From the NCBI GenBank assembly GCA_016432365.1, contig CP066686.1, positions 192,355-256,354 of the forward strand: DNA of 64,000 bases, read 5' to 3'. This DNA comes from Candidatus Woesebacteria bacterium. Lineage in GTDB: Bacteria > Patescibacteriota > Microgenomatia > UBA8517. The position numbers were made by a program, and so were the translations under genes. Below are positions 42,270 through 55,414 of this stretch, one piece after another (position 1 is the stretch's first letter; each line of letters starts with the position of its first letter). The notes under the pieces were generated by a model, which was not told where the DNA came from, made no database searches, and saw nothing but the letters and a program-made list of their open reading frames with translations.

Positions 42270-43238
42270 ATGAGTATTAAAAAAATTACCCTCTTGATAT
42301 TAGGCATCGCAGTTGTATTTTTTTTGATTTTCCTATATGTTTTTAGATCGCAAGTTCATATAGCTTCGAAATTTTTGTTTCCTGATATAGCTCAAGTGAG
42401 GTCTGATAGCAACCGCACCAACTTTTTGATTTTGGGTATTGGAGGAAAGGACCATACAGGAGGAGACCTAACCGACACAATAATGCTTGTTTCGGTAAAT
42501 CTAAAAGGTCAGGGAGTGGATGTAGTTTCAATTCCCAGGGATTTGTGGATTCCTGAAATCCGCGCCAAAATTAATAGCGCCTATCATTACGGAGGCACGG
42601 ACTTGGCAAAGTCTTCGGTAGAGAAGGTTACGGGAATAAAGATCCAATATTCAGCGATAGTGGACTTTTCAGCCTTTAAAGATATTGTAGATGCCCTTGG
42701 CGGAATTCAAGTGGATGTAGAAACAGGCTTCTCTGATAAATTGTATCCAATTGCTGGGCGGGAAAACGATACATGTAGCGGGGACAGAACTCTTGCCTGT
42801 CGTTATGAGACGGTAACTTTTGTACCCGGTCTTCAATTGATGAATGGCGACACAGCTTTAAAATTTGTCCGTTCGCGACACGCCGAAGGACCAGAGGGGA
42901 CAGATCAGGCGCGTGAGGCCCGACAACAAAAAGTTATAGATGCCATCAAGAATAAATTACTTACGCCTCAAATTTATCTTTCGTTGAATATGGACAAGGC
43001 AATATTTAATGTACTAAGAAATTCTGTCGAAACGGATGTTGATGATAAGACAGCAGCAATTATTGCCAGAAAAGTTTTTGATTCCAGAAATTCAATAAAT
43101 AAATATTTAATTCCGGACGGTTTTTTGATCAACCCCCCAATTACAAGTAGTTATGATAAACAATACGTCTTAATACCAAAAGAGGGTAATGGGAAATGGG
43201 AGGAGATTCAAAAATGGATCAGTAGACTTCTTAAGTAA
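42270..43238 (+). CDS. LCP family (LytR-CpsA-Psr) cell-wall glycopolymer ligase
   Basis: N-terminal TM; RTNFLILGIGGKDH, DTIMLVSV and SIPRDLW motifs. Confidence 0.8.
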   Translation: MSIKKITLLILGIAVVFFLIFLYVFRSQVHIASKFLFPDIAQVRSDSNRTNFLILGIGGKDHTGGDLTDTIMLVSVNLKGQGVDVVSIPRDLWIPEIRAKINSAYHYGGTDLAKSSVEKVTGIKIQYSAIVDFSAFKDIVDALGGIQVDVETGFSDKLYPIAGRENDTCSGDRTLACRYETVTFVPGLQLMNGDTALKFVRSRHAEGPEGTDQAREARQQKVIDAIKNKLLTPQIYLSLNMDKAIFNVLRNSVETDVDDKTAAIIARKVFDSRNSINKYLIPDGFLINPPITSSYDKQYVLIPKEGNGKWEEIQKWISRLLK

Positions 43239-43240
43239 AA

Positions 43241-44899
43241 ATGCGAGATCTATTAAAAAAAATACGCAAAGAACCCGTTTGGATACTTGTGGCGGTACTG
43301 GGTTGCATTATCTACTTTCTTTTTGATAGTCACATAATCAAACCCGACATAAACGGAAATTTAACAACAGGGGAAAGCACCTATGGAGATTTGCCGTTTC
43401 ATTTGGCGACTGTTTCCCGAATGGCCTACACTGGGACCCTTCCTCCGGAAAACCCATTATTTTCAGGAATTCCCTTGGTTTATCCATTTTTTATAAACTT
43501 TTTATCGGCTGTAATTGTGATTTGGGGATTTAGTCTCAGATCTTCAATAATTTTCCCGGGTATGATTTTTTCTATTCTCATGATCATATCTCTTTACTTT
43601 TTTTACAAAAAGTTGACCGGACGCAAGTCGGTCGCCTTTTTGGGAACACTTTTATTTTTCCTCAATGGTGGCCTTGGCTTCTATTATTTTTTGAAAGACG
43701 TTGCATTAAAGGGAAAACTTGAAAATTTTATAACCAACCCTGGCGCCTATCCGGATTACAGTCATTTATTCGGACAAAATATACAATGGTGTAATTTTTT
43801 ATCCCGGATATTGATTCCCGAACGGAGCGTCCTTTTGGGAATTCCGATGGGAATTTCTATTTTGTATATACTTTTTTTGAAGGAGAAAGAGGACAAAAAA
43901 AATTTAGATTGGTGGTTTATTTTAGCAGCAGTGTTAACAGGTCTTTTGCCGCTTTCCCATACTCATACGTTTATAGTTTTTAGTCTCTTGATTCCGTTTT
44001 TGGCTTTTTTTGAGTTGCGCATAAGTAATTGGAAAGAATGGTTAAAAAGATGGTCAATTTTTGGGGCGATAACTCTGGTGGTTGCAGTTCCGCAATTAAG
44101 GTTAATTTTTTTCCATTTAAATACCAGCTCGACCTTCTTTAAATATCACATCGGTTGGATGAGCAATCCGGGAATATTGGAATTTACAATGTTTTGGTGG
44201 AAAAATACGGGTGTATTAATTCCCCTATTAATTTCATCTCTATTTTTTATCAAAACCTACAAATTATTGACCAGACTGGTTTGGTTTTCGTTTTTTGTTT
44301 TTACAATCATAAATTTATTTATTTTCCAACCATTTGATTGGGACAACGTTAAGTTTCTTTTTTGGTTTGCAATCATCGCTTACGGGGCAATTGCTTTTCT
44401 TTTGGTAAAATTATGGCAGAGCAAAATCTTTTTTGGAAAAATACTCGCGGCAATTCTCGTTGCTTCACTAACTCTGTCTTCACTACTGTCTATATATCGT
44501 GAGATGAATGTAAGCTATCAGTTGTTTTCTAAGGAAGAGGTTGATTTAGGATCGTGGGTTAGGGAAAATACACCGTTTGATTCGTTATTTTTGACGGAGT
44601 TCACTCACAGGAGCTTTGCAAGCAACTTAGGCGGGAGAAAAATATTAATGGGCTATCAAGGTAGTCTTTGGGTTCACGGAATAAAATATGGGGACAGGGA
44701 AAGGGATATTAAAAATATATATTTAGGTGCCAGCGACGCGATGAACCTTTTGTATAAATATGATGTCGACTATGTTGTAATAGGTCCGGGAGAAAGGAAT
44801 GTGCTAAAAGCAAGCGAAGATTTTTTTATAGAAAATTTCTGTCTTGTTAAAGCTACTACAAATTACAGGATTTATTCTGTAAAATGCGGCATCGAATAA
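43241..44899 (+). CDS. Large polytopic membrane protein, probable GT-C-fold glycosyltransferase with C-terminal extracytoplasmic domain
   Basis: 552 aa, more than 10 TM helices, conserved-looking loop GESTYGDLPFHLAT; family not identifiable by eye. Confidence 0.4.
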   Translation: MRDLLKKIRKEPVWILVAVLGCIIYFLFDSHIIKPDINGNLTTGESTYGDLPFHLATVSRMAYTGTLPPENPLFSGIPLVYPFFINFLSAVIVIWGFSLRSSIIFPGMIFSILMIISLYFFYKKLTGRKSVAFLGTLLFFLNGGLGFYYFLKDVALKGKLENFITNPGAYPDYSHLFGQNIQWCNFLSRILIPERSVLLGIPMGISILYILFLKEKEDKKNLDWWFILAAVLTGLLPLSHTHTFIVFSLLIPFLAFFELRISNWKEWLKRWSIFGAITLVVAVPQLRLIFFHLNTSSTFFKYHIGWMSNPGILEFTMFWWKNTGVLIPLLISSLFFIKTYKLLTRLVWFSFFVFTIINLFIFQPFDWDNVKFLFWFAIIAYGAIAFLLVKLWQSKIFFGKILAAILVASLTLSSLLSIYREMNVSYQLFSKEEVDLGSWVRENTPFDSLFLTEFTHRSFASNLGGRKILMGYQGSLWVHGIKYGDRERDIKNIYLGASDAMNLLYKYDVDYVVIGPGERNVLKASEDFFIENFCLVKATTNYRIYSVKCGIE

Positions 44900-47334
44900 T
44901 AATGTTCACATTTATTAAAAGAATGTTAAGCAGTAGGATTTTTTTATTACTTTTTTTTGGTTTATTTTTTAGGGTCGTGCTCTCTTTTTTTGGGACATTG
45001 AATCTGGATCAGGGAACATTTGTTGCCTGGAGCATTAACCTTGCCCGGGATGGTTTTAGAAATTTCTATAACGGATGGAGTGATTATCTACCCGGATACC
45101 TTTATGTTCTTTGGCTCTTGGCGAAGATCAATCTGTTTGGGATATTTCCGACGTCAATTCTTTACAAACTACCGGCGATAATTTCCGACTTGTTGACTGG
45201 GCTTATTATTTATAAGATATTGCGTAAATCCAAGGGCGAAAAATGGGGACTTGTTGGAAGTGCTATTTATATTTTTAATCCTGCTGTTTTTGCAAACTCT
45301 GCTTTGTGGGGTCAGGTTGATTCTTTGACATCATTGTTCTCGGTGTTGTCTGTTTATCTATTGCCATTTAGTCTTCACCTTTCTGCTGTAGGTCTAGCGA
45401 TTGGAACCCTCGTAAAACCGCAAACAGCCTTTATTTTTCCTGTAATTCTGTTTTTACTAATCAAAAATAAGAAAAAGTTTTCAGATTTCCTGGTTTATGG
45501 TATCACGGGTTTAATTGTTTTTGTTGCCGGATTCATTCCTTTTTGGAACCACGGTAATTTGATATCTTTTATTTTTGAGAGATTGGGTTTATCTCTAAAT
45601 CAATACCCATATACTTCAGTAAACGCCTTTAATTTTTGGGGACTTATCGGGCTATGGAAACCTGACAATGTCGTCTTCCAAGTTTGTGGATATGTTTTAT
45701 TTATAGCTGCGACAGTGTTTTTATCCTTTAAATTGTGGAAACAAAAGAACCCTGAATATTATTTAACATCTTTTATATTTGCTGTAAGTTTTGTTTTTTT
45801 TACCCGGATGCACGAGAGACATCTTCTTCCATTATTTGCACCCCTTGCCATCGTAGCGATAGAGAATCCGGTTCTTATGATTCCTTATCTTAGTTTTTCT
45901 TTAACTTATGTTGCAAATCTTTACTATGCGTATGTTTGGATTTCATCTAACTTCAAAGAGGTGTTTTCTGATTTTTTTATCAAAATTCTTGAGCTTATTA
46001 ATATCGGATCAGTCTTTTTTATGTTTACCGTTATTGCTAAAAAAATAAATAAAACATGGTTGTGGTTTAAATATCCGTTTAATCGAGTATTTGGAAACAA
46101 AAAACAATCGATTGTAAAATACAAGTTACCTCAGAATAGTCTTTCTAAAAATAAAGCAAAATATATTTTAATTGGAATTTTGGCATTCGCATTTGTTACC
46201 AGAATATATAATTTAAATTCTCCTAAAACCGAATATTTTGATGAGGTTTACCACGCTTTTACCGCGAAGGTAATGATACACGCAGATGCCAACAAGGCTT
46301 GGGAATGGTGGAACACCCCGCCGGAAGGATTTGCTTACGAATGGACGCACCCACCTTTGGCAAAGTTGGGCATGGTAATGGGGATGAAAATATTTGGGGA
46401 AGATTCTTTTGGATGGAGAGTCCCCGGAGCAATTCTTGGTGTTGGATCGGTACTACTGGTTTATCTTTTAGCAAAATTTTTATTTAAAGATGAATTAACC
46501 GGGCTTTTGTCGGCTGCCGTCTTTTCTCTCGACGGACTGGTACTTGTAATGAGCAGGATAGGAATGAACGACAGTTATTTGCTGTTTTTTGTATTGCTGT
46601 CGATATATTTCTTTTTGCAGAAAAAAGATTTTCGGTCTGCAGTCTCATTTGGTTTGGCAATTTCTTCCAAGTGGTCGGCAATTTGGGCAATTCCAATTTT
46701 GGGGATTATCTGGCTAAAGAGGAAGAATAAATTTAGACTTTCAACTTTTGCGTTTTTTTTAGTTATTCCGTTTATCATATATCTTTCATCTTACATCCAG
46801 ATGTTCCTAACCGGTCATGGTCTTGATATCTGGTGGGGAATGCAGGAGCAGATGTGGTGGTATCACACGGGGCTAAAGGCAACTCATGCATATTCCTCTT
46901 CTTGGTGGAGTTGGCCTTTTTTGATTCGTCCTATTTATCTTTACACCTCCAATGAGGTGGCTGGTTGGGTTGCAAGAATCTATGCGATGGGCAATCCATT
47001 GGTTTTTTGGTTCGGTATGACCTCAGTTGTCATGGGATTCGTTTATGCGTTCATGGAAAAAAATAAAAAGATTGGATTTGTCGTATTTAGTTATCTGATA
47101 TTTTTTGTTCCTTGGGCACTCTCCCCGAGAATAATGTTTTTATATCATTACCTTCCTTCAATTCCTTTCTTAGCGATAGCAATTGGGTATATTCTACGCC
47201 GTAACCCCAAGTTGATTTTCCCGTTCTTAGTTTTTAGCTTTTCGCTTTTCCTTTACTTTTATCCTCATTGGATCGGTCTTCAAATCCCGTTATGGTTAGA
47301 CAGGGGCTACTATTGGGTAGCCTCATGGCGTTGA
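44884..47334 (+). CDS. Double GT-C membrane glycosyltransferase: N-terminal mannosyltransferase-like (DUF2029/PIG-M-like) module + C-terminal GT39 PMT/ArnT-like module (DEVYHA motif)
   Basis: 816 aa with about 20 TM helices. Second half begins with a TM then FDEVYHAFTAKVM (the DE motif of PMT-type enzymes). Alternative ATG at 44902. Confidence 0.55.
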   Translation: MRHRIIMFTFIKRMLSSRIFLLLFFGLFFRVVLSFFGTLNLDQGTFVAWSINLARDGFRNFYNGWSDYLPGYLYVLWLLAKINLFGIFPTSILYKLPAIISDLLTGLIIYKILRKSKGEKWGLVGSAIYIFNPAVFANSALWGQVDSLTSLFSVLSVYLLPFSLHLSAVGLAIGTLVKPQTAFIFPVILFLLIKNKKKFSDFLVYGITGLIVFVAGFIPFWNHGNLISFIFERLGLSLNQYPYTSVNAFNFWGLIGLWKPDNVVFQVCGYVLFIAATVFLSFKLWKQKNPEYYLTSFIFAVSFVFFTRMHERHLLPLFAPLAIVAIENPVLMIPYLSFSLTYVANLYYAYVWISSNFKEVFSDFFIKILELINIGSVFFMFTVIAKKINKTWLWFKYPFNRVFGNKKQSIVKYKLPQNSLSKNKAKYILIGILAFAFVTRIYNLNSPKTEYFDEVYHAFTAKVMIHADANKAWEWWNTPPEGFAYEWTHPPLAKLGMVMGMKIFGEDSFGWRVPGAILGVGSVLLVYLLAKFLFKDELTGLLSAAVFSLDGLVLVMSRIGMNDSYLLFFVLLSIYFFLQKKDFRSAVSFGLAISSKWSAIWAIPILGIIWLKRKNKFRLSTFAFFLVIPFIIYLSSYIQMFLTGHGLDIWWGMQEQMWWYHTGLKATHAYSSSWWSWPFLIRPIYLYTSNEVAGWVARIYAMGNPLVFWFGMTSVVMGFVYAFMEKNKKIGFVVFSYLIFFVPWALSPRIMFLYHYLPSIPFLAIAIGYILRRNPKLIFPFLVFSFSLFLYFYPHWIGLQIPLWLDRGYYWVASWR

Positions 47335-47380: not shown

Positions 47381-47770
47381 ATGGAAGAAATAGGAAGACC
47401 GATTATAAAGAGTTTCAAAGATTTAGAGATTTACACGGAAAGTTTTCAACTTCAGATAGAGATTGAAGAATTACTAAAAACATTTCCAGAACTAGAGAGG
47501 TATCTATTGGTTGATCAAATGAGAAGGTGTTGCCGGTCAATTCCCGCAATAATATCAGAAGGATGGGCGCTGCGTGATTCGGTGAAGGAGTTTAAGAATT
47601 TTTTACGAAGAGCTTACGGAAGTAATTGTGAAATGATAAACCACCTTATGCTTGCGAAGTATAAGAGTTATATAAAAATGGATGGTTATGCAGACGAACT
47701 TATAAAAAGATATGAAATATTGGGAATGAAAATCACTAAACTTCGAAACAATTGGCAGAAATTTAAATAG
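47381..47770 (+). CDS. Four-helix-bundle protein of the 23S-rRNA intervening-sequence family (TIGR02436-like)
   Basis: 129 aa; IKSFKDLEIYTESFQLQIEIEELLKTFPELERYLLVDQMRRCCRSIPAIISEGWAL...FKNFLRRAYGSNCEMINHLMLAKY fits the family pattern SF.DL.V......L...IY.LT..FP..E.Y.L..Q.RRA..SI..NIAEG. Confidence 0.65.
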   Translation: MEEIGRPIIKSFKDLEIYTESFQLQIEIEELLKTFPELERYLLVDQMRRCCRSIPAIISEGWALRDSVKEFKNFLRRAYGSNCEMINHLMLAKYKSYIKMDGYADELIKRYEILGMKITKLRNNWQKFK

Positions 47771-47843: not shown

Positions 47844-48188
47844 TTATGCCGGTCCTAGGACAAAATTTCCTTTCCCCAGAAAATATATAAGCAGTCCCAA
47901 GAACAAAATTATTATGAGGAAATAACCGACAGACCAGCCCCCCTCGTGTGGGAAAAAAAGATCAAAAGGATACGATGTAAAAATAGAAGTTTTAAGCTTC
48001 TTAAGGGAAGACATGGTTAAATAAAAAGCGGCATACACAATTATTGCCGTAGTGAGAACAACAATTATAAAAACATAATTGTTTTTAAAAAAATCTAATA
48101 ATGTGTTAAGAAGTGTGATCAAAGCGCCAGTAAGAGTGACCCCAAGATGACCAGTATTCCAAGTCCGGCTCCTGCCATTGTCGGCCAA
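47844..48188 (-). CDS. Hypothetical membrane protein (overlaps the 3' end of the next gene in another frame)
   Basis: 114 aa, three hydrophobic helices; 70-nt overlap with 48119-49051, so one of the two ends may be wrong. Confidence 0.3.
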   Translation of the reverse strand: MADNGRSRTWNTGHLGVTLTGALITLLNTLLDFFKNNYVFIIVVLTTAIIVYAAFYLTMSSLKKLKTSIFTSYPFDLFFPHEGGWSVGYFLIIILFLGLLIYFLGKGNFVLGPA

Positions 48189-49051
48189 TCCGTTCCTGAT
48201 TGTGGAAGAGTCGGAGGTGTTGCGGTTGGTGCGGGCGTGCCGTTACAAACACAGTCGCTTTCGGCTGTACAAGAGGGATTTCTACAAAAACCGTTGTAGC
48301 AGACAAGATCGCTTCCGCAATTAAAGTTGCTTCCACATGTTCCGCCGCATGAGTTTGGTGGAGCGGTTGGCGTAGCTGTAGGTGAGGCACTAGGACTTTC
48401 CGTTTGTGTGCCGGCCACAGTTACAGCAATAGAACAGTTAGAGGTTGAGTCACCTGCACCCTGGACGGTGGCTGTATTTGATATAGTTCCTGTCGCCGTG
48501 TCGTTTACGGACACTCTAAAGGCGGCCTGAGTATTTGTTCCCGCCAGAGTACATGTGACTTTTCTGGTCGAAGCCGCGTAGCCACACTCACTATCGCTAT
48601 CAACAAATGTAACTTCAGTTGGCAGGGTGTCCGTTATTGTAATGGCCTTCGTGGTATTGGGTGGCCCCGGTTTTACAACAAACACAATTTTATCGCCGAC
48701 ATTCACACTGGCGTTATTTGCAAGCAAGTTTGCATTAGAGATGTCGTAACTACCAGCGGTATTCGAAGCCACATCCTTGTACACTCTTTTGCTTGTACAA
48801 ACAATCACTCCGGGTGTTGCGGTGGGGGTTGCTGTTGGTGTCGCAGTTGGGGTGGGAGTAGCTGTTTGTGTGGTAAAAGTAAAAGAAAGATTGCAGGAAT
48901 TTTCGGACGCTTTTGGATTACTTGAAGGAACGTTCGGAGCCACTGACGTTTGACGCAACTGGTAAAGCCTGATAGCGGTAAAAATGGCAACACCTGCCAA
49001 GATTAGGGTAATAATTATTATTAAGCCGGTTGCAAATTTAGATTTTTTCAT
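48119..49051 (-). CDS. Surface protein: N-terminal signal anchor, (TATP)n linker, DUF11-type conserved repeat domain, Cys-rich module, C-terminal LPXTG-like motif (LPQSG) + hydrophobic tail
   Basis: 310 aa; ITITDTLPTEVTFV...TATVQGAGD resembles DUF11/TIGR01451; 10+ cysteines in the last 70 aa; tail LPQSGTDWPTMAGAGLGILVILGSLLLAL lacks a basic C-terminus. Confidence 0.5.
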   Translation of the reverse strand: MKKSKFATGLIIIITLILAGVAIFTAIRLYQLRQTSVAPNVPSSNPKASENSCNLSFTFTTQTATPTPTATPTATPTATPGVIVCTSKRVYKDVASNTAGSYDISNANLLANNASVNVGDKIVFVVKPGPPNTTKAITITDTLPTEVTFVDSDSECGYAASTRKVTCTLAGTNTQAAFRVSVNDTATGTISNTATVQGAGDSTSNCSIAVTVAGTQTESPSASPTATPTAPPNSCGGTCGSNFNCGSDLVCYNGFCRNPSCTAESDCVCNGTPAPTATPPTLPQSGTDWPTMAGAGLGILVILGSLLLAL

Positions 49052-49066
49052 AATTCAGGTGTTGCG

Positions 49067-49936
49067 TTATCTCCAAATCCTTACTATCTTTAACTCCGCT
49101 GAAACAACAAATGTCGTAACTCCTTCGGGAATGGTATAAAGATCACAAAACTCGTTTGGTACTCCACCAGGCCTTGTTGCAGATGTTTCTGGTCTTAATA
49201 CGCCATTAATTGTGAATCTGGCCATACTAAAAGGAAGATTACTGTTTGTGAATCCAGTAGCGCAAAAATTAACTTGGTTGCCACCCCTAAGTTTTGTAAG
49301 ATCGACATCATTCAATAATACCCAGTCTGTTGAATATGCTTTAATGTTTCGGCACTCGGCAATAAGCTTGAAATCAGTTTTACCTTCACAGTCATGAACC
49401 CATTCATAACTACAGCCACTATTTTTACAATAATCCAACAACTGACAGCGAGTACAGTTATCGTCTGGATCTGGGGGGTCACAGTTCAGATTATCCGCTT
49501 TAGAATTTGGATTTTGATTCTGTCCAGTTAGTAGCACTCCTGTGCCAATTCCGCCGACCAAAAGAAGTAGTCCTAAAATTGTGGCAATAATTTTACCCCC
49601 GCCGAATTTCTTTTTAGGAGAGGATGTTGTCATTGGGGAGAGGCTGCCATCCGGCACCTCCTGTGGTGCGGCGGAGCCAGCCTGTGTGGTATCCGGTGCC
49701 ACACTGGTGGTGGTTGTTGTAGTCGTCGTGGTTATTGGTGGTTCCGGTGGAACGCCAACCGGATCCGCCGGGGTGACGGGTGGAACGTTCTGAATATCCT
49801 GAACATCCTGAAAATCAGGAGGAAGCGGTGGAAGGTCGGCTTGGGGAAAAATAACAGGAGTTGCCCCAGAATCCGTTGGTTGGTTCTGGTTATTCTGATT
49901 TGGATCGTTTTGATTGGGCATGTTTTTGAAAAACAA
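49067..49936 (-). CDS. Pro/Thr-rich membrane-anchored protein with extracellular Cys-rich domain
   Basis: 289 aa; poly-Thr run (TTTTTTTTT), TM helix IIATILGLLLLVGGIGTGVLL, then a 10-Cys domain (CDPPDPDDNCTRCQLLDYCKNSGC...). Confidence 0.45.
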   Translation of the reverse strand: MFFKNMPNQNDPNQNNQNQPTDSGATPVIFPQADLPPLPPDFQDVQDIQNVPPVTPADPVGVPPEPPITTTTTTTTTSVAPDTTQAGSAAPQEVPDGSLSPMTTSSPKKKFGGGKIIATILGLLLLVGGIGTGVLLTGQNQNPNSKADNLNCDPPDPDDNCTRCQLLDYCKNSGCSYEWVHDCEGKTDFKLIAECRNIKAYSTDWVLLNDVDLTKLRGGNQVNFCATGFTNSNLPFSMARFTINGVLRPETSATRPGGVPNEFCDLYTIPEGVTTFVVSAELKIVRIWR

Positions 49937-49989
49937 ATGACGATGTCAAACGACATCTATACTCAGAATAGAGAAAAGACTAGTTATAG

Positions 49990-50736
49990 TCAAGGAGATC
50001 GGCTAAATGTGTCGGAAATCGTGATTTTTCCTGTGCTTCCGTCAATTAATATATTTGTTCCGTCAGATATTTTTAATTTAGGCGAGACTATTGCAGGAAT
50101 ATTAAATTCGCGGGCTAAAATCGCTCCGTGGGAGGTTACTCCACCGTTTAACAATATAATACCAATACATTTTGAAAATTGTCTGGTATATTTAGTTCCG
50201 GCTGTCGGAAAAATCCCGATGCAATTTTTTGGAATTGTCTGCCTTTCGGAAGTAATATTTAGCGCTTTTCCTTTAACAACACCATCTGATACTCCGAATG
50301 TTTTGACCGTTTTTATAACCTGATCATTTTGCGCATCTTTTTTATTAGACCCGGTTATCATTTTTTTTACAGCTAGCCTGTATTTTCTAAGTTCTATCAG
50401 AGTATTAATGAGGTTGTTATTAGTCTTGGTGCCACGGTCTACCTTTTTATTAATGGAAATTATTTCCTGATTCGATTTGCCATAGGCCAAATACTTGGCA
50501 TAGAACTCGTTTAAATAACCAATCGCGATCGCCCGTGGATAGACCGTATTTATCAAATATTCTTGGTCTTTCGATGCTTTAATCTCAGAGACAAGTTTGT
50601 GAGCAAACTTAACATTTTTTTGAGGATTAACAACCCATTTAACAAAAAGATAGGTAGTTTTGATGATGTTTGTGGTTCCGAGCAGCTTCATTGCTAAGTC
50701 GTAGCTTGTTTTGTTTTCTATCAAAATGGATTTCAT
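49990..50736 (-). CDS. Standalone PEP-utilizing-enzyme mobile (phosphohistidine swivel) domain protein
   Basis: 248 aa; C-terminal GGVTSHGAILAREFNIPAIV...TGKITI matches the swivel domain of PEP synthase/PPDK/enzyme I, catalytic His in TSHGA. Confidence 0.6.
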   Translation of the reverse strand: MKSILIENKTSYDLAMKLLGTTNIIKTTYLFVKWVVNPQKNVKFAHKLVSEIKASKDQEYLINTVYPRAIAIGYLNEFYAKYLAYGKSNQEIISINKKVDRGTKTNNNLINTLIELRKYRLAVKKMITGSNKKDAQNDQVIKTVKTFGVSDGVVKGKALNITSERQTIPKNCIGIFPTAGTKYTRQFSKCIGIILLNGGVTSHGAILAREFNIPAIVSPKLKISDGTNILIDGSTGKITISDTFSRSP

Positions 50737-50756
50737 TGGCGAGTATAATTAATTAT

Positions 50757-51050
50757 ATGATATTCGCAGCATCGCTTTTATTATTTTTGGTAATTTTTAC
50801 ACTTTCTGTAACAGATGCCAAAGCCATAGTTGTTCTTATCCCCGTAGTTCTAATTCCGATCGTAAATGTAGTTGTTTGGGTTATTGGAGCGATTGCAACA
50901 CCAGTTGTGGGACTCACAGCTTTGTACTTCAAAATTAAGAAGAAATCGCCGGTGATTGGTATATTACTCGGAGTGGTTCTGCTTTTACTACTAGGGTTAA
51001 TAATTACAATTGTATTTAAGATAATTAACCCCGAAAGGCCAATCTATTGA
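50757..51050 (+). CDS. Small hypothetical membrane protein
   Basis: ORF 50670-51050 overlaps the previous gene; ATG at 50757 gives about 97 aa with three TM helices. Confidence 0.35.
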   Translation: MIFAASLLLFLVIFTLSVTDAKAIVVLIPVVLIPIVNVVVWVIGAIATPVVGLTALYFKIKKKSPVIGILLGVVLLLLLGLIITIVFKIINPERPIY

Positions 51051-52021
51051 TACAACTGTTCGTAGATTCCGAATCCGTTTATTCGTTTTCCATTTTCTGT
51101 AACAACTTCACCTTCGACCTGTCCGGTAGTCCAAGCATAGGGGGAAAAGGACACATTCTTATCGATCTCGTTTAAAAAGCTTACATTGATATTTTTGTTG
51201 ATATTGGCAGGGATTTTGATCTTATATCCGGTGGTTAAGACTTTTTGAATATCAAAAGCAAAAGATTTTTGGATTCGGCCATAATTATCTTTATAGATCG
51301 CAATGGAGTGTGATTTATATTCACCTTTATAGTTGTTATCAACGGATGTCTTGTCTACATGATAAAAATTTCCGTCTGTGTCCCAAAAAGCAACCCAATC
51401 GCTGTTTATTCCTACCGGGTTGTTTACAACGATAGAACTAATAGAAGTGGCATAAGCATAGGTTCTGCTATAAAGGACATGGCTATCATATGACTTTCCG
51501 TTTAAGATTATCTGACCGGAAGTTTCAGATCTGAACTGAGTATATTCGGGGAGGCTTCTAATCCCCAGTTCATTATTAAATTCCGGTACATTAAATTCGA
51601 CCTTGTTACTGCCAATTTGCACTTCTCCTGAGACACTTTGTTTTAAAACGCGGGTTGGATCAACGACAACGTTCCATTTTGGTATTATCGGACTGCTTAC
51701 AATGTCAGAATCAACAGAGATAGTATTTGAGATGTCGCTTTGCCATGTTTTACCGTCGAAAAAAAATGCCTTCTGTCGTTGTGAGTATGACGAACTCGTT
51801 TTAAAAGTCCTGGATGCATAAGCAATTAAAGTATAGTGGGGTGCGTCTTTTGAAATAAGAATTATTTCATCACTAAAATAAGGCTTTAAATTTGACTGGC
51901 TTGTTTCTGTTTCTACATCAGATTTTATGAATAAATCTTTCAAAAAATATCCTGAATAAAACGAGGCAAGAACACTTAACACGAAGATGGCGACAACGAA
52001 AACATACTGTTTAGTAGTCAT
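51044..52021 (-). CDS. Hypothetical secreted/membrane-anchored protein
   Basis: 325 aa; N-terminal signal anchor; otherwise unassigned, Ser/Asn/Tyr-rich. Confidence 0.45.
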   Translation of the reverse strand: MTTKQYVFVVAIFVLSVLASFYSGYFLKDLFIKSDVETETSQSNLKPYFSDEIILISKDAPHYTLIAYASRTFKTSSSYSQRQKAFFFDGKTWQSDISNTISVDSDIVSSPIIPKWNVVVDPTRVLKQSVSGEVQIGSNKVEFNVPEFNNELGIRSLPEYTQFRSETSGQIILNGKSYDSHVLYSRTYAYATSISSIVVNNPVGINSDWVAFWDTDGNFYHVDKTSVDNNYKGEYKSHSIAIYKDNYGRIQKSFAFDIQKVLTTGYKIKIPANINKNINVSFLNEIDKNVSFSPYAWTTGQVEGEVVTENGKRINGFGIYEQLYQ

Positions 52022-52024
52022 AGC

Positions 52025-53320
52025 TTAATTTTCAGATGCCTTCCAGATAAAAGTGCCAAAACTCAAAATTGCTATGCCTATCGCAAACAATATAAGAGTG
52101 GGAACCGTTTCACCTGTAACCGGAATGGGTTTAGGGGAAGCTGTAGGTGATGCGCTAGCGGTTGCCCCGGGGGTCGGGGATGGGAATATTCCTGAATTAG
52201 ATGCGGTGAAAGCCGGGTTCTCGCTAGCCTGAACAATAAAGTTTCTGGTAAGAGTTCTGGTTATTCCGTTTGAATCAATCCAGGAAATGGTAATTGAATG
52301 AGCACCAGCTGCTAAATCGACCGGAGCACTAAAGGTCCAAGTGCCGTCTTTGGCGATAAACATATCTTGTGTAACGGGATCGGATTGAATTGTGATGGTA
52401 ATTTTTTCCCCTCCCGGGCCTCGGCCAAAAAATTCCGGCCGGGAACTGGTTACAATTTCTCCTTCACTCAAGCTTTCCAGTATTACACTGGTTGGAGTCG
52501 GAGATCCCGTTGCAACAGGAATAGAAAATTTCGACTCCTTTACTGTATTCTCAGGGAGACTCAAATTGGCATTTGGAATCTGACCGCTTTGGGATGGAGG
52601 AAGACCTCTTAAATCGTAGACTTGTCCCAAAACCATTGGTGGGACCGGGTTGGCGGACTGTGGAAAAATTTGAGCGGAGCTTACCCCATCTGCTCCTGCT
52701 TGAATTGAGATTGAAAGTAAAGTTTGAGCCTTGTCTATTTGCGCATAGCTCGTTAAGTCTTGAGTTCTTACAGATCCCAATTGAAAAACAAAGTTTCCCG
52801 TATCAGACGTGAGAGTGGAAAGAAGGTATCCGCCAACTTCTATATAGGCGAGCACTCCTTTTTCAGGGACTCCCGAGGCATTTATGACGGAACCGGAAAC
52901 AAGTAGATTATTTTGGCTGATTCCCAGGTCCGGGCCTGTAGAAAATTCCCACGGGATTCCACCGTTATCAAACATTGTTCCATCCGAATTTATTTTGTAG
53001 AAATATTTTGTACCGGCTTTAAGTCCGGTAAGAGTTATGGCGTGAATCGAAAGTTTTGCATTATTTTCCCCATCGGTTTTGTTTAATGATGATTTGGATT
53101 CCCCCCAAGAAATAAAACTCAAAGTTTCTTTATCGGTGACCCATGAGATTGTGGCGGAGGTGTCGCTGATATTACTTATGCGGATGTCTTTTGGAGCAAT
53201 GGAGCTGTCTGCTCCAATCCTAAAAACTTGATTCATGCCCAAAAAGAAAACTCCGGCAAAAATTCCTACAAGAAGTATAACTATTCCTAGGATTGTTGGT
53301 ATTTTATTTTTTTTGATCAT
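52025..53320 (-). CDS. Surface protein with fibronectin type III-like domain, N- and C-terminal TM anchors
   Basis: 431 aa; FN3-like RISNISDTSATISWVTDKETLSFISWGES...TGLKAGTKYFYKI; C-terminal TM plus a short tail. Confidence 0.5.
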   Translation of the reverse strand: MIKKNKIPTILGIVILLVGIFAGVFFLGMNQVFRIGADSSIAPKDIRISNISDTSATISWVTDKETLSFISWGESKSSLNKTDGENNAKLSIHAITLTGLKAGTKYFYKINSDGTMFDNGGIPWEFSTGPDLGISQNNLLVSGSVINASGVPEKGVLAYIEVGGYLLSTLTSDTGNFVFQLGSVRTQDLTSYAQIDKAQTLLSISIQAGADGVSSAQIFPQSANPVPPMVLGQVYDLRGLPPSQSGQIPNANLSLPENTVKESKFSIPVATGSPTPTSVILESLSEGEIVTSSRPEFFGRGPGGEKITITIQSDPVTQDMFIAKDGTWTFSAPVDLAAGAHSITISWIDSNGITRTLTRNFIVQASENPAFTASNSGIFPSPTPGATASASPTASPKPIPVTGETVPTLILFAIGIAILSFGTFIWKASEN

Positions 53321-53329
53321 TTTTGAAAA

Positions 53330-53680
53330 TTAAGGCGATGGCGACGCAGACGGCGACGAGATTGGCTCTTGTGAGAGGTTCGGAGTGGGAGTGGGATTGG
53401 ATGTGGATGTGCCGGTCGGTTGGGAAGGCGTAGTCGCGGAAAGTTTGGCGGTAACCACGTTATCCGGGATTTGAGAATCGTCAAGAAAAATACGGGATTC
53501 TATTTGTTTTAGAGTATCGATATCTAATGTTGGTGTAAGGGGTTCAGACACTTCTTTTGGAACCACGGCGGGAGGCTTCGACGTCAATGCCCCGTAAATA
53601 GTTAGAGATATCCACATAATAACTGTAATTAATGTAAGTATAAGTATTATTACAACATTTGGTATCTTTTGAACTTTCAT
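53330..53680 (-). CDS. Small membrane-anchored Pro/Thr-rich protein (PilP-position gene)
   Basis: 116 aa; one TM helix, then a low-complexity P/T/S tail. Confidence 0.35.
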   Translation of the reverse strand: MKVQKIPNVVIILILTLITVIMWISLTIYGALTSKPPAVVPKEVSEPLTPTLDIDTLKQIESRIFLDDSQIPDNVVTAKLSATTPSQPTGTSTSNPTPTPNLSQEPISSPSASPSP

Positions 53681-53681
53681 A

Positions 53682-54278
53682 TTAATTTTTTAGAAACGGA
53701 ACCCTGCCGGCAATTATTGCAACTATAACTTGTCCGGAATCGGTTTGGGAAGCATTAATTCCCAAACTGTCAATCTTAATTGTTACCCTCAGATTCTCAA
53801 GATCTTTTATGAAAGACTCTATATTTGGATAAGCCCCTTTAATACTTAAAGAGATTTGCATCTCGCCAGGATTGCCCGGGATTGGTTTGTAATCGGAACT
53901 CTTCTTTGCGGACGGGTTGGCTCCGACCAGCACTGTCTGGCCGATGGAAAATCCTAAAATAGAGACAGCGTCTTTTACGGCAAGTCCCTGGATTTGTTTT
54001 GAGATGATGTCTACATTGGCTTGAGATGATATTGCAATGTCGACATCCCTCGTGGCGGCCTCGTTTTGCGTTAGAACGTTCTCGGCAGTTTGCAGGTTTT
54101 TTATTTTAAGGTTCAAACCGGCGAGGGTGGTCTTTTTTTCCTGGATTTGTTGAACCAAACTTATAATTGTTAGTACTGTGGGCTTGAGAGCAAATGAAAG
54201 AAAAATTGTAATGGTTGTAAGAGAAAGTATGATTTCGAGAAACGCGCGAAGTTCGGCCCTTTTTTTATAAAGAGCCAT
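53682..54278 (-). CDS. pilO: Type IV pilus assembly protein PilO-like
   Basis: ORF reaches 54335; likely start MALYKKRAELRAF at 54278. N-terminal TM, coiled coil, PilO-like C-terminal domain; immediately downstream of pilN. Confidence 0.5.
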   Translation of the reverse strand: MALYKKRAELRAFLEIILSLTTITIFLSFALKPTVLTIISLVQQIQEKKTTLAGLNLKIKNLQTAENVLTQNEAATRDVDIAISSQANVDIISKQIQGLAVKDAVSILGFSIGQTVLVGANPSAKKSSDYKPIPGNPGEMQISLSIKGAYPNIESFIKDLENLRVTIKIDSLGINASQTDSGQVIVAIIAGRVPFLKN

Positions 54279-54341
54279 AATATTTAAAAAATATTCTCTA
54301 TATCGTAAGTATGATCCTCTCCAACCAAGTGCCATGTTTTT

Positions 54342-54875
54342 TTAGAATAAAATTTTTATTATGAAAATCGTCGATCCGGGTCTGTCTTCAGATGAATTGA
54401 TTGAGCTGAGTTCCACTTTTTTGAAAGAGGGAATGTTTCCCAGATTGCTTGCAAACTGAGCAATTGCAAGTTCGGAGGACGCAATTCCTTTTACTGCCAT
54501 GCTATTTTCTTGAACGGATACAGAAGAAAGGGTCACATCGGTTGGGGTCACCGACGCCACAGTTCCCGCTCTATCGCTGGGTTTTACTACTGAGGAAAGT
54601 GCTTTGAAAATACTTAGTTTGGCTTGGATTCCTCTGAAACGTTTTTCCAATTCTTCCTGGGCGGATATTTGGGCGCTACGAATCTTCACTGAGTCGGTTA
54701 AATCTGAATTTTGTGCATCCAGCCAAAAGCGCGAAAGAAATGCGGCCATAACTACCATCTCTGTTATTATGACAATTATTCTAAAAGTGCCGGTTGCCCA
54801 CCTTAATACACGACCAATAGTGGAAGCTTCAAATTCTTCTTGAGGTAATAAATTGATTGATTTATTTTTGGGCAT
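54342..54875 (-). CDS. pilN: Type IV pilus assembly protein PilN-like
   Basis: 177 aa; hallmark N-terminus KSINLLPQE, single TM, periplasmic domain. Confidence 0.6.
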   Translation of the reverse strand: MPKNKSINLLPQEEFEASTIGRVLRWATGTFRIIVIITEMVVMAAFLSRFWLDAQNSDLTDSVKIRSAQISAQEELEKRFRGIQAKLSIFKALSSVVKPSDRAGTVASVTPTDVTLSSVSVQENSMAVKGIASSELAIAQFASNLGNIPSFKKVELSSINSSEDRPGSTIFIIKILF

Positions 54876-54909: not shown

Positions 54910-54997
54910 TAAGCAAACCTTGGCCAACTAATATTTCAGTGGTAAGCATAGCTTGCATTTCGATGACTCAAAGTAAGCAAAGCTTGGCCAACTAATA
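54910..54997. repeat. Direct repeats taagcaaaScttggccaactaata (24 nt, 23/24 identical), each with the palindrome TTGGCCAA, plus a degenerate middle copy at 32-nt periodicity
   Basis: Copies at 54910-54933 and 54974-54997; related taagcatagcttgc at 54942; located between rpsT and pilN. Confidence 0.6.
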
Positions 54998-55049: not shown

Positions 55050-55343
55050 TTATGACTTCTTTTTTGGAGTTTTTGAAGATTTTGGCTTAATTTCTTTCTT
55101 TTCCGTTTTCTTGACCAAAAGTTTTGCCATTTGTGATTTTATTCTTGCGGCCTTATTTTTGTGGATGACCTTTTTCTTGGCGGCTCTATCTGCAAGTGAA
55201 ATAGCCACTGTGATTTTTCCGGTAGTTTTGTCTTTTTTGGCAATTCTGATAGCCGCCTCAAGCTTGCTGATAATAAGCTTGTTTACTGATTCTTTGACTT
55301 TGCTGCCCCTAAGGGCTCTTTTGGCTGTTTTTGTTACTGGCAT
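55050..55343 (-). CDS. rpsT: 30S ribosomal protein S20
   Basis: ORF 55050-55358; ATG 55343 gives MPVTKTAKRALRGSK...VIHKNKAARIKSQMAKL, typical S20. Confidence 0.85.
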   Translation of the reverse strand: MPVTKTAKRALRGSKVKESVNKLIISKLEAAIRIAKKDKTTGKITVAISLADRAAKKKVIHKNKAARIKSQMAKLLVKKTEKKEIKPKSSKTPKKKS

Positions 55344-55414
55344 ATATATTGAAATCAAACCCCTGATTTCACGATTGTTAGTATACGATAAAGAGGCTAG
55401 AATATCAACCAGAT

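Follow-up and report, generated by a model that had tools for sequence, protein, structure and literature searches.

Does a gene cluster that places pilN and pilO beside several anchored surface proteins and a solitary phosphohistidine swivel domain encode one apparatus, or is it assembled from separate parts? The question is raised by a stretch of 64,000 nucleotides (nt), hereafter the window, from a metagenome-assembled genome (MAG) of Candidatus Woesebacteria (Microgenomates, candidate phyla radiation (CPR); locus tags HYV90). A first-pass annotation of the sequence had proposed a single apparatus for cell-surface attachment or pilus function, with the swivel protein as a possible phospho-relay module. 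Our analysis favours a different reading, to which we assign a probability of roughly 60%: the region is a mosaic of two units, a pilN-pilO envelope operon and a three-gene accessory insert that includes the swivel gene.

Window genes were assigned to families by Pfam and NCBIfam scans, the Pfam scans taking in 30 of the approximately 65 open reading frames (ORFs). Related loci were gathered by exact-protein look-ups together with a PilN-alignment scan of one genome per GTDB species, giving approximately 90 loci (referred to by L numbers where they must be told apart). One hidden Markov model was built per gene family of the region and every related locus was annotated with these models. All genes named in the first-pass annotation were found on the minus strand at the positions it had given (Table 1), and the sequences of the swivel protein (HYV90_01440) and of a 325-residue (aa) protein, here termed p325 (HYV90_01450), are identical to their NCBI entries, both on a contig of 1.08 Mb.

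A pilN-pilO operon conserved across Woesebacteria

The gene order rpsT – pilN – pilO – small membrane protein – (FN3/Ig) – surfA – surfB is common to approximately 80 Woesebacteria species. Here FN3/Ig denotes a surface protein with fibronectin type III and immunoglobulin-like domains, surfA a poly-Thr, Cys-rich protein and surfB the protein that carries a DUF11 domain in the window. The full layout, with arrowheads giving the direction of each gene, is hrcA< murJ<, then rpsT> pilN> pilO> small> (FN3/Ig)> surfA> surfB>, then <PMT in essentially all loci, and the order is kept down to approximately 38% PilN identity. Junctions are tight, with gaps typically of 0–10 nt: the median gaps are 1 nt (pilN-pilO), -4 (pilO-small), -4 (small-FN3/Ig), 9 (FN3/Ig-surfA) and 4 (surfA-surfB), and each junction joins genes of the same strand with an overlap or a near-zero gap in 58-77 loci. 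The small membrane protein, which 77/83 loci contain and whose gene overlaps pilO by a median of 4 nt, possesses a conserved transmembrane (TM) helix, a VPxE..P.xPxLD motif and, in many species, a Pro/Thr-rich tail. surfA was detected in 68/83 loci, those without it being mostly short contigs. The FN3/Ig protein was detected in 67/83 and is absent or truncated in some deep branches, and so is less universal.

Given the tight junctions and the conserved order, surfA and surfB, previously described as 'divergent surface proteins', are core members of the pilN operon. With the order kept in 80 genome loci, the link between pilN-pilO and the anchored proteins is much stronger than the window shows. 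It might be argued that the order persists through genome collinearity alone and that pilN-pilO and the surface-protein genes are functionally unrelated neighbours; the flanking hrcA, murJ, rpsT and PMT genes are, after all, equally syntenic. However, collinearity alone would leave unexplained the shared strand and the overlapping or near-zero gaps, and the order persists at low PilN identity while the site between the FN3/Ig gene and surfA seems to tolerate insertions (see below). We consider this explanation very unlikely.

The related loci all belong to Woesebacteria or Patescibacteria MAGs. Many of the records (L011, L016, L017, L019 and others) are named 'uncultured Gammaproteobacteria bacterium' or 'Alphaproteobacteria bacterium' and hold a Woesebacteria-type pilN operon with its flanks; the taxonomic labels of those records look wrong.

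PilN and PilO belong to the type IV pilus alignment families and pilM is not adjacent

PilN of the window matches Pfam PF05137 at 44 bits (cut-off 22.8), and its profile matches Myxococcus xanthus PilN in 3JC8, a model of the pilus machine, with an E-value of 3e-4. PilO of the window falls below the Pfam cut-offs (PF04350, 16.7 bits against 22; T2SSM_b, 21.4 against 21.7). Nonetheless, 19 of 23 orthologues match Pfam PilO, with a best E-value of 5.7e-10, and the PilO profile matches M. xanthus PilO in 3JC8 with an E-value of 1e-7, so that by sequence its membership is clear at the family level.

The N-terminus of the window PilN contains the motif SINLLPQEEF. In characterised systems, INLLP at the cytoplasmic N-terminus of PilN is the PilM-binding peptide. 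INL[LI]P was found at this position in 81/83 orthologues, a count that is somewhat circular since part of the search pattern used the motif. Yet pilM was never seen next to pilN: the gene directly upstream in 81 loci, nearly all of the related ones, is rpsT, followed by the divergent murJ. Consistent with the first-pass annotation, which had noted that pilM, an ATPase and a pilin were missing, motif scans and the Pfam scans of 30 ORFs identified no pilM, pilus ATPase, pilC, pilin or sortase in the window. A prepilin motif of the G[FM]T[LI]xE type had zero matches in all six frames of the window, and the single match to a sortase motif (TLxTC type) in the window falls within an ORF with a Pfam assignment to glycosyltransferase family 2 and not to sortase. 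A Pfam scan of 20 further window ORFs for PilM, T2SSE, T2SSF, sortase and PPDK_N returned none of them. surfA and surfB were themselves considered as pilins and rejected, as both lack a class III signal and a Glu at position +5.

The retention of INLLP suggests that PilM is probably encoded elsewhere in the genome. A complete Microgenomates genome has been described with a single pilus locus listing PilA, minor pilins, PilD, PilB, PilT, PilC and PilM but not PilN or PilO; sortase is also present in that genome (PMC7143001). The most economical reading is therefore a split system, in which pilM would reside in the main pilus locus and pilN-pilO in the present operon.

Alternatively, PilN and PilO could have been repurposed as a scaffold that displays or secretes the surface proteins encoded with them, without any pilus being involved. 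pilM is never adjacent, the operon partners are surface proteins and not pilus parts, and a precedent is reported in the PilM/N/O homologues of the Campylobacterota flagellar cage (PMC10823254). Against this stand the retained INLLP motif and the pilus genes themselves, which occur widely among CPR bacteria and, together with an MdbA-like disulfide oxidoreductase, are enriched there (PMC6744442). Additionally, the Microgenomates locus that lists PilM without PilN and PilO fits a split but single system (PMC7143001). Repurposing is thus unlikely, and we retain the split pilus system.

In comparison with the type IVa PilM-PilN-PilO(-PilP) subcomplex (M. xanthus 3JC8, Pseudomonas aeruginosa, Thermus thermophilus), the Woesebacteria operon has the same PilN and PilO domains in bitopic proteins, the same order of pilN and pilO, translationally coupled, and the INLLP peptide. 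It differs in that rpsT and murJ lie upstream instead of pilM, in that there is no PilP or PilQ, and in its downstream genes, which encode the small bitopic protein, the FN3/Ig protein with its LPXTG-type tail and a pair of Cys-rich anchored proteins for which no pilus homologue is known.

Surface proteins of the operon carry two types of C-terminal tail

The FN3/Ig protein of the window possesses an N-terminal hydrophobic segment and an LPXTG-type C-terminal signal, which reads IPVTG-ETVPT followed by a TM segment and a terminal K. Tails of this family conform to [LVIT]Px[T/S/A]G, xLTPT, a hydrophobic segment and K/R, with the motif found in 59/63 tails and the basic K/R end in 58. When scored against the LPXTG model TIGR01167 (cut-off 15.9 bits), the L002 orthologue lies above the cut-off at 19.9 bits and the window protein below it at 14.2 bits.

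The tail of surfB is of a second type. In the window it reads ...TLPQSGTDWPTMAGAGLGILVILGSLLLAL, comprising LPQSG-TDWPT and a hydrophobic end with zero basic residues. The first-pass annotation had pointed to this LPQSG tail without a basic end, together with the DUF11 domain and a Cys-rich cap, and had suggested an alternative sorting signal. All of these features are borne out. Across the family the tail takes the form LPx[S/A/V]G-[T/V/I]x[W]PT, a hydrophobic segment and ...LLLAL, with the motif in 61/62 tails. Position 4 of the motif is S in 29, A in 26 and V in 6 tails, and Thr in 0/61; K, R or H follows the motif in 0/61. surfB tails score 12.9 and 11.7 bits against TIGR01167, below its cut-off, with only model positions 1-28 of 34 aligning. 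The surfB tail, which lacks the basic end, is thus conserved as a variant signal and is not peculiar to one gene. Compared with LPXTG sortase substrates, both the FN3/Ig tail (with its K/R end) and the LPxxG of surfB precede a hydrophobic segment as expected, whereas surfB departs from them in the absence of Thr at position 4, in a conserved WPT after the Gly and in the missing basic end. A Pro four residues after the Gly is common to both tail types (59/61 surfB and 48/59 FN3/Ig). When the C-terminal tails were scanned with NCBIfam models for sorting signals of other kinds, such as PEP-CTERM-like ones, only weak LPXTG-type matches emerged. Among the ORFs of all related loci, the only carriers of these tail types were surfB, members of the FN3/Ig family and two surfA-like paralogues. 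A sortase is near-ubiquitous among Microgenomates (PMC6744442).

surfB comprises a conserved N-terminal anchor or signal, a variable middle, an 8-Cys module and the sorting-like tail. DUF11 (PF01345) is matched by the window protein at 29.4 bits (cut-off 24.6) and occurs in 1/23 orthologues, that of this genome only, while CARDB occurs in 2; no consistent Pfam family was obtained for the orthologue set. surfA possesses a Pro-rich N-terminal region with a run of nine Thr residues (predicted to be cytoplasmic), a conserved TM helix (KKKFGGGK...) and an ectodomain composed of a variable 9-Cys region and a conserved C-terminal domain. The poly-Thr, Cys-rich character given to it in the first-pass annotation therefore stands, with a corrected count of nine cysteines in place of ten. 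Pfam scans of the surfA orthologue set likewise gave no consistent family, and a search of the surfA profile against the PDB gave nothing meaningful.

Sequence identity between close relatives dips across surfA. In L004 (10657-12910) the adjacent surfA and surfB share a domain of approximately 90 aa that is very similar by eye (VANPVVGQSVT...QCQICTD), which suggests domain exchange between surfA and surfB in at least one genome. Together, the variable middle of surfB, the domain exchange and the surfA identity dip fit the pattern of fast-evolving exposed proteins.

A three-gene insert interrupts the operon in some loci

Between the FN3/Ig gene and surfA, the window carries p325, a gene for a 97-aa protein on the opposite strand, and the swivel gene. 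This insert is present only in the window and in L002-L010, L047, L049 and L092-L099. It is absent from approximately 65 other loci as well as from L011, whose PilN is 76-77% identical to that of the window. Between the window and L010 the flanking genes are 81-91% identical and the insert genes 62-68%; between the window and L004, p325 and the swivel protein are 58% and 56% identical, yet PilN is only 47% and the FN3/Ig protein 37%. This incongruence between insert and flanks points to repeated loss, or to exchange between lineages. Wherever the insert genes occur, including the long-form copies away from pilN described below, the 97-aa gene sits between p325 and the swivel gene.

At the position that the insert occupies in the window, L046 (12676-14744) carries a different insertion, made up of an extra surfA-like gene and a 351-aa opposite-strand gene resembling a transcription regulator.

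These observations bear directly on the single apparatus proposed at the outset. All genes other than that for the 97-aa protein do lie close together on one strand, and the arrangement recurs in several independent assemblies. However, the operon of most Woesebacteria lacks the swivel, p325 and 97-aa genes, and the trio is found away from pilN beside an ATP-grasp gene. Furthermore, the opposite-strand gene separates the swivel gene from the upstream operon genes, and the identities of the insert do not track those of its flanks. A single apparatus that includes all these genes is already disfavoured and we regard it as extremely unlikely. The part of the proposal that survives is the linkage of pilN and pilO to anchored surface proteins. 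Nothing links the swivel protein to the pilus genes as a phospho-relay; the insert and its swivel protein are not part of the pilus system.

The p325 protein had been described as secreted. Its gene exists as annotated, but the protein is membrane-anchored by its N-terminal TM helix, with an all-beta ectodomain in the AlphaFold2 model (pLDDT, the model confidence score, 85.6). A Foldseek search of the PDB with this model gave 2ICH (AttH-like) as the leading match (E 7e-10, TM-score 0.53), followed by kievitone hydratase and fungal Diels-Alderases; 7A0Q matched with an E-value of 4.5e-8. p325 thus shares a predicted double-barrel ectodomain fold with AttH, CrtC (carotenoid 1,2-hydratase), kievitone hydratase and the fungal Diels-Alderases (Foldseek E 7e-10 to 1e-5). 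It differs from the AttH/CrtC group in having no sequence-family match, in being TM-anchored on the outside of a CPR cell, and in its constant pairing with the 97-aa membrane protein and the swivel protein.

The swivel protein as a probable reduced form of a split-kinase subunit

The structure model of the swivel protein (pLDDT 83.7) comprises a helical bundle (residues 7-128), a linker and a phosphohistidine swivel domain (147-240). The latter matches PEP-utilizers (PF00391; PEP, phosphoenolpyruvate) at 52 bits (cut-off 23.1), with its His in GGVTSHGAIL, in accordance with the standalone domain of the first-pass annotation. PF00391 is the sole domain found in the protein: the PPDK_N and TIM-barrel domains of PEP synthase, pyruvate phosphate dikinase (PPDK) and enzyme I of the PEP-dependent phosphotransferase system (PTS) are absent from it, and its NCBIfam scores lie far below cut-off. 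Neither the window nor any pilN locus was found to contain a PPDK_N ATP-grasp gene.

We identified 26 full-length homologues of 195-248 aa and 46-78% identity, in which the TSHG His is invariant and the helical motifs are conserved. The ORF is therefore not a pseudogene, and its origin by assembly splitting of a PEP synthase was rejected, as the short architecture recurs in many assemblies made independently. Searching 1.8 billion representative proteins with a profile recovered only approximately 5 full-length representatives of the short family, whose nearest neighbours form a large family of proteins 410-457 aa long that carry the swivel domain at the C-terminus. The short protein aligns to this long form in two blocks, with approximately 107 N-terminal and 110 internal residues lost.

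A metagenome scan with the p325 alignment yielded 25 loci, and the trio was present in most contigs long enough to show neighbours, either with the short swivel form inside the pilN operon or with the long form away from pilN. Where long-form contigs extend far enough, a PPDK_N gene is usually next. At the P0064 locus, for instance, homologues of p325 and of the 97-aa protein (opposite strand) are followed by a 445-aa swivel protein and an overlapping 270-aa PPDK_N gene, far from any pilN. P0077 encodes a 697-aa fusion that joins swivel and PPDK_N domains. The family of separate ATP-grasp proteins numbers 2371 members, and Daviesbacteria and Levybacteria figure among those with names. It is therefore common and normal for swivel proteins of Microgenomates to be lone or split.

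Two further contigs show other arrangements. In a Levybacteria contig (L119, JACOXT010000003.1, 3209-7834), three tandem swivel proteins (439, 465 and 355 aa) are followed by one 277-aa PPDK_N gene, suggesting that one ATP-grasp subunit is shared by several substrate-specific subunits. In a Daviesbacteria-type contig (L118, 5608-7825), a 352-aa protein without a Pfam match, a 110-aa swivel-only protein and a 274-aa PPDK_N protein lie in a row, an arrangement that resembles an enzyme of this kind divided into three parts.

The best fold matches of the short swivel protein are to the rifampin phosphotransferase RPH-Lm (E 2e-7, but a TM-score of only approximately 0.36), with only two blocks of the long-form helical domain retained. 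RPH-Lm (5FBT/5HV1) and PEP-synthase-like enzymes (PRK06241, PigC) likewise possess a C-terminal phosphohistidine swivel domain behind helices, and NCBIfam aligns the window protein to the C-terminal ends of these enzymes. In contrast to them, the Microgenomates version comes as two proteins, one with the substrate and swivel domains and one with the ATP-grasp domain, and the window protein is further reduced (248 aa), with no ATP-grasp gene nearby.

Is the short swivel protein then a decaying, non-functional remnant of a long kinase subunit? The extent of the lost sequence, the ATP-grasp gene that is no longer adjacent and the lack of PPDK_N in the window and the pilN loci are what such decay would predict. 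Conversely, decay is difficult to reconcile with the full-length homologues, their invariant TSHG and conserved helical motifs or the confidence of the structure model. Charging in trans is also plausible, since one ATP-grasp gene serves several swivel proteins in Levybacteria. We judge a remnant distinctly unlikely. The window swivel protein is instead a conserved but reduced derivative, belonging to an accessory module that is unrelated to the pilus operon.

Coordinates and neighbouring features

The features of the region are collected in Table 1. They confirm the minus-strand run from rpsT through the repeats, pilN, pilO and the small anchored protein to the FN3 gene, and extend the earlier description by the LPXTG-like tail of the FN3/Ig protein, the opposite-strand 97-aa gene and the anchoring of p325.

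Table 1. Features of the region in order along the operon; positions refer to the window.
Feature	Position	Strand	Evidence or remark
rpsT (ribosomal protein S20)	55050..55358	-	Pfam Ribosomal_S20p, E 8e-10
Two 24-nt direct repeats in an insertion of ~96 nt	54910..54997	.	rpsT-pilN spacer
pilN, bitopic type IV pilus alignment protein, N-terminal cytoplasmic INLLP	54342..54875	-	Pfam PilN, E 2.4e-11
pilO	53682..54335	-	orthologue Pfam matches and profile match to M. xanthus PilO
Small bitopic membrane protein, operon core member	53330..53680	-	no Pfam match
FN3 / CarboxypepD_reg-like / Big_13 Ig-like surface protein	52025..53320	-	fn3, Pur_ac_phosph_N, Big_13
p325 (HYV90_01450), insert gene 1	51044..52021	-	predicted fold, no Pfam match
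97-aa membrane protein, insert gene 2	50757..51050	+	protein-level conservation in every insert copy
Short swivel protein (HYV90_01440), insert gene 3	49990..50736	-	PEP-utilizers, E 5.4e-14
surfA (poly-Thr/Cys protein), operon core member	49067..49936	-	found in 68/83 loci
surfB (DUF11 protein here), operon core member	48119..49051	-	DUF11, E 1.1e-6
Small membrane protein of ~92 aa, 3' of surfB	47844..48122	-	phmmer matches at the same position elsewhere

The true start of rpsT is likely the MPVTK codon near 55343. At the other end of the operon, the longest ORF call for the protein of approximately 92 aa overlaps the 3' end of surfB, and in L001 the gene 3' of surfB is called as 92 aa. phmmer matches to this protein occur at the same position in approximately 19 other loci of the wider clade of the window, and it is absent from the other matches.

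The repeats between rpsT and pilN consist of two copies of TTAGTTGGCCAAG[C/G]TTTGCTTA, 64 nt apart, and the sequence was not found elsewhere in the window. A promoter-like site (TTGGCC, 17 nt, TATATT, with TG in front) coincides in part with the second copy. The repeat-bearing insertion is absent from the three relatives aligned (L010, L011 and L013), and a clade-wide role of the repeats was accordingly rejected.

Between the end of the operon and the PMT gene, a plus-strand gene (47381-47770) encodes a four-helix-bundle '23S rRNA intervening sequence protein'; its occurrence at this place is limited to a few relatives (L046, L053 and L059). Adjoining the operon are large PMT-family glycosyltransferases and a LytR_cpsA_psr protein (43241-47334 and 42270-43238). 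VanW, M23 peptidase, PEGA/SH3 and DUF4012 envelope proteins are encoded elsewhere in the window, and the neighbourhood is rich in cell-envelope functions. The GC content is 0.43-0.45 at 48001-50000 and 52001-54000, against approximately 0.39 elsewhere, and it is in these intervals that the Pro/Thr/Ala-rich linkers of the surface proteins are encoded.

Discussion

We interpret the region as two units. The first would be an envelope operon common to the Woesebacteria sampled, in which PilN and PilO would form the membrane alignment pair of a type IV pilus machine, with a main pilus locus elsewhere expected to encode PilM, the ATPases and the pilins. The anchored proteins of the operon, in a cell without an outer membrane, would most likely serve as outer parts of the pilus machine specific to the lineage, or as adhesins displayed alongside the pilus. 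Of these, the FN3/Ig protein would be attached to the wall by a sortase, while surfB carries a variant signal (LPx[S/A/V]G-xxWPT and a hydrophobic end) without a charged tail.

The second unit would consist of p325 as an AttH/CrtC-like, membrane-anchored ligand-binding protein, the 97-aa membrane protein and the short helical-plus-swivel protein. It appears to be a reduced copy of the four-gene module seen on other metagenomic contigs, which is probably widespread in Microgenomates. In that module the substrate-plus-swivel protein of 420-455 aa and the ATP-grasp protein of approximately 275 aa may together form a split kinase resembling rifampin phosphotransferase and PEP synthase. The short swivel protein, if active, would have to be charged on its His in trans, as no ATP-grasp gene is adjacent.

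Several points weigh against this two-unit interpretation. The housekeeping flanks hrcA, murJ and PMT are syntenic too, and part of the conservation is thus general collinearity. Neither sequence nor fold comparison tied the small protein, surfA or surfB to known pilus components. The AttH-like assignment of p325 is one of fold only (TM-score approximately 0.53): no match to Pfam CrtC or Lipocalin_9 was obtained among 14 members at E-values up to 1, and no Pfam model fits. The short swivel protein is without much of the substrate domain, making its activity uncertain. Finally, for this genome the searches covered the 64-kb window, and PilM, the pilus ATPases, the pilins, a sortase and an ATP-grasp partner are inferred.

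A more specific version of the operon's role may be proposed tentatively, although we hold it to be doubtful: the PilN/PilO platform could carry a lineage-specific, wall-spanning or adhesive outer module (the small bitopic protein, surfA, surfB and usually an LPXTG-anchored FN3/Ig protein) in the place that PilP and PilQ hold where bacteria have an outer membrane, with the surfB tail as a distinct sorting signal handled unlike LPXTG. More broadly, we infer the function of the operon from its gene content, and regard pilN-pilO with its anchored proteins as the more interesting part of the region. It would represent a variant of a known system and nothing categorically new.

For host attachment and DNA uptake, CPR bacteria are believed to rely on type IV pili and on proteins of the cell surface. 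The operon gives concrete candidates for the outer part that would fix a pilus in the single-membrane CPR envelope, or for host-recognition adhesins, and its conserved sorting tail without a basic end offers a variant of sortase signalling that can be put to the test. In Microgenomates, the split rifampin-phosphotransferase-like kinases, of which the window holds a reduced copy only, would constitute an uncharacterised enzyme system paired with an AttH-like ectoprotein.

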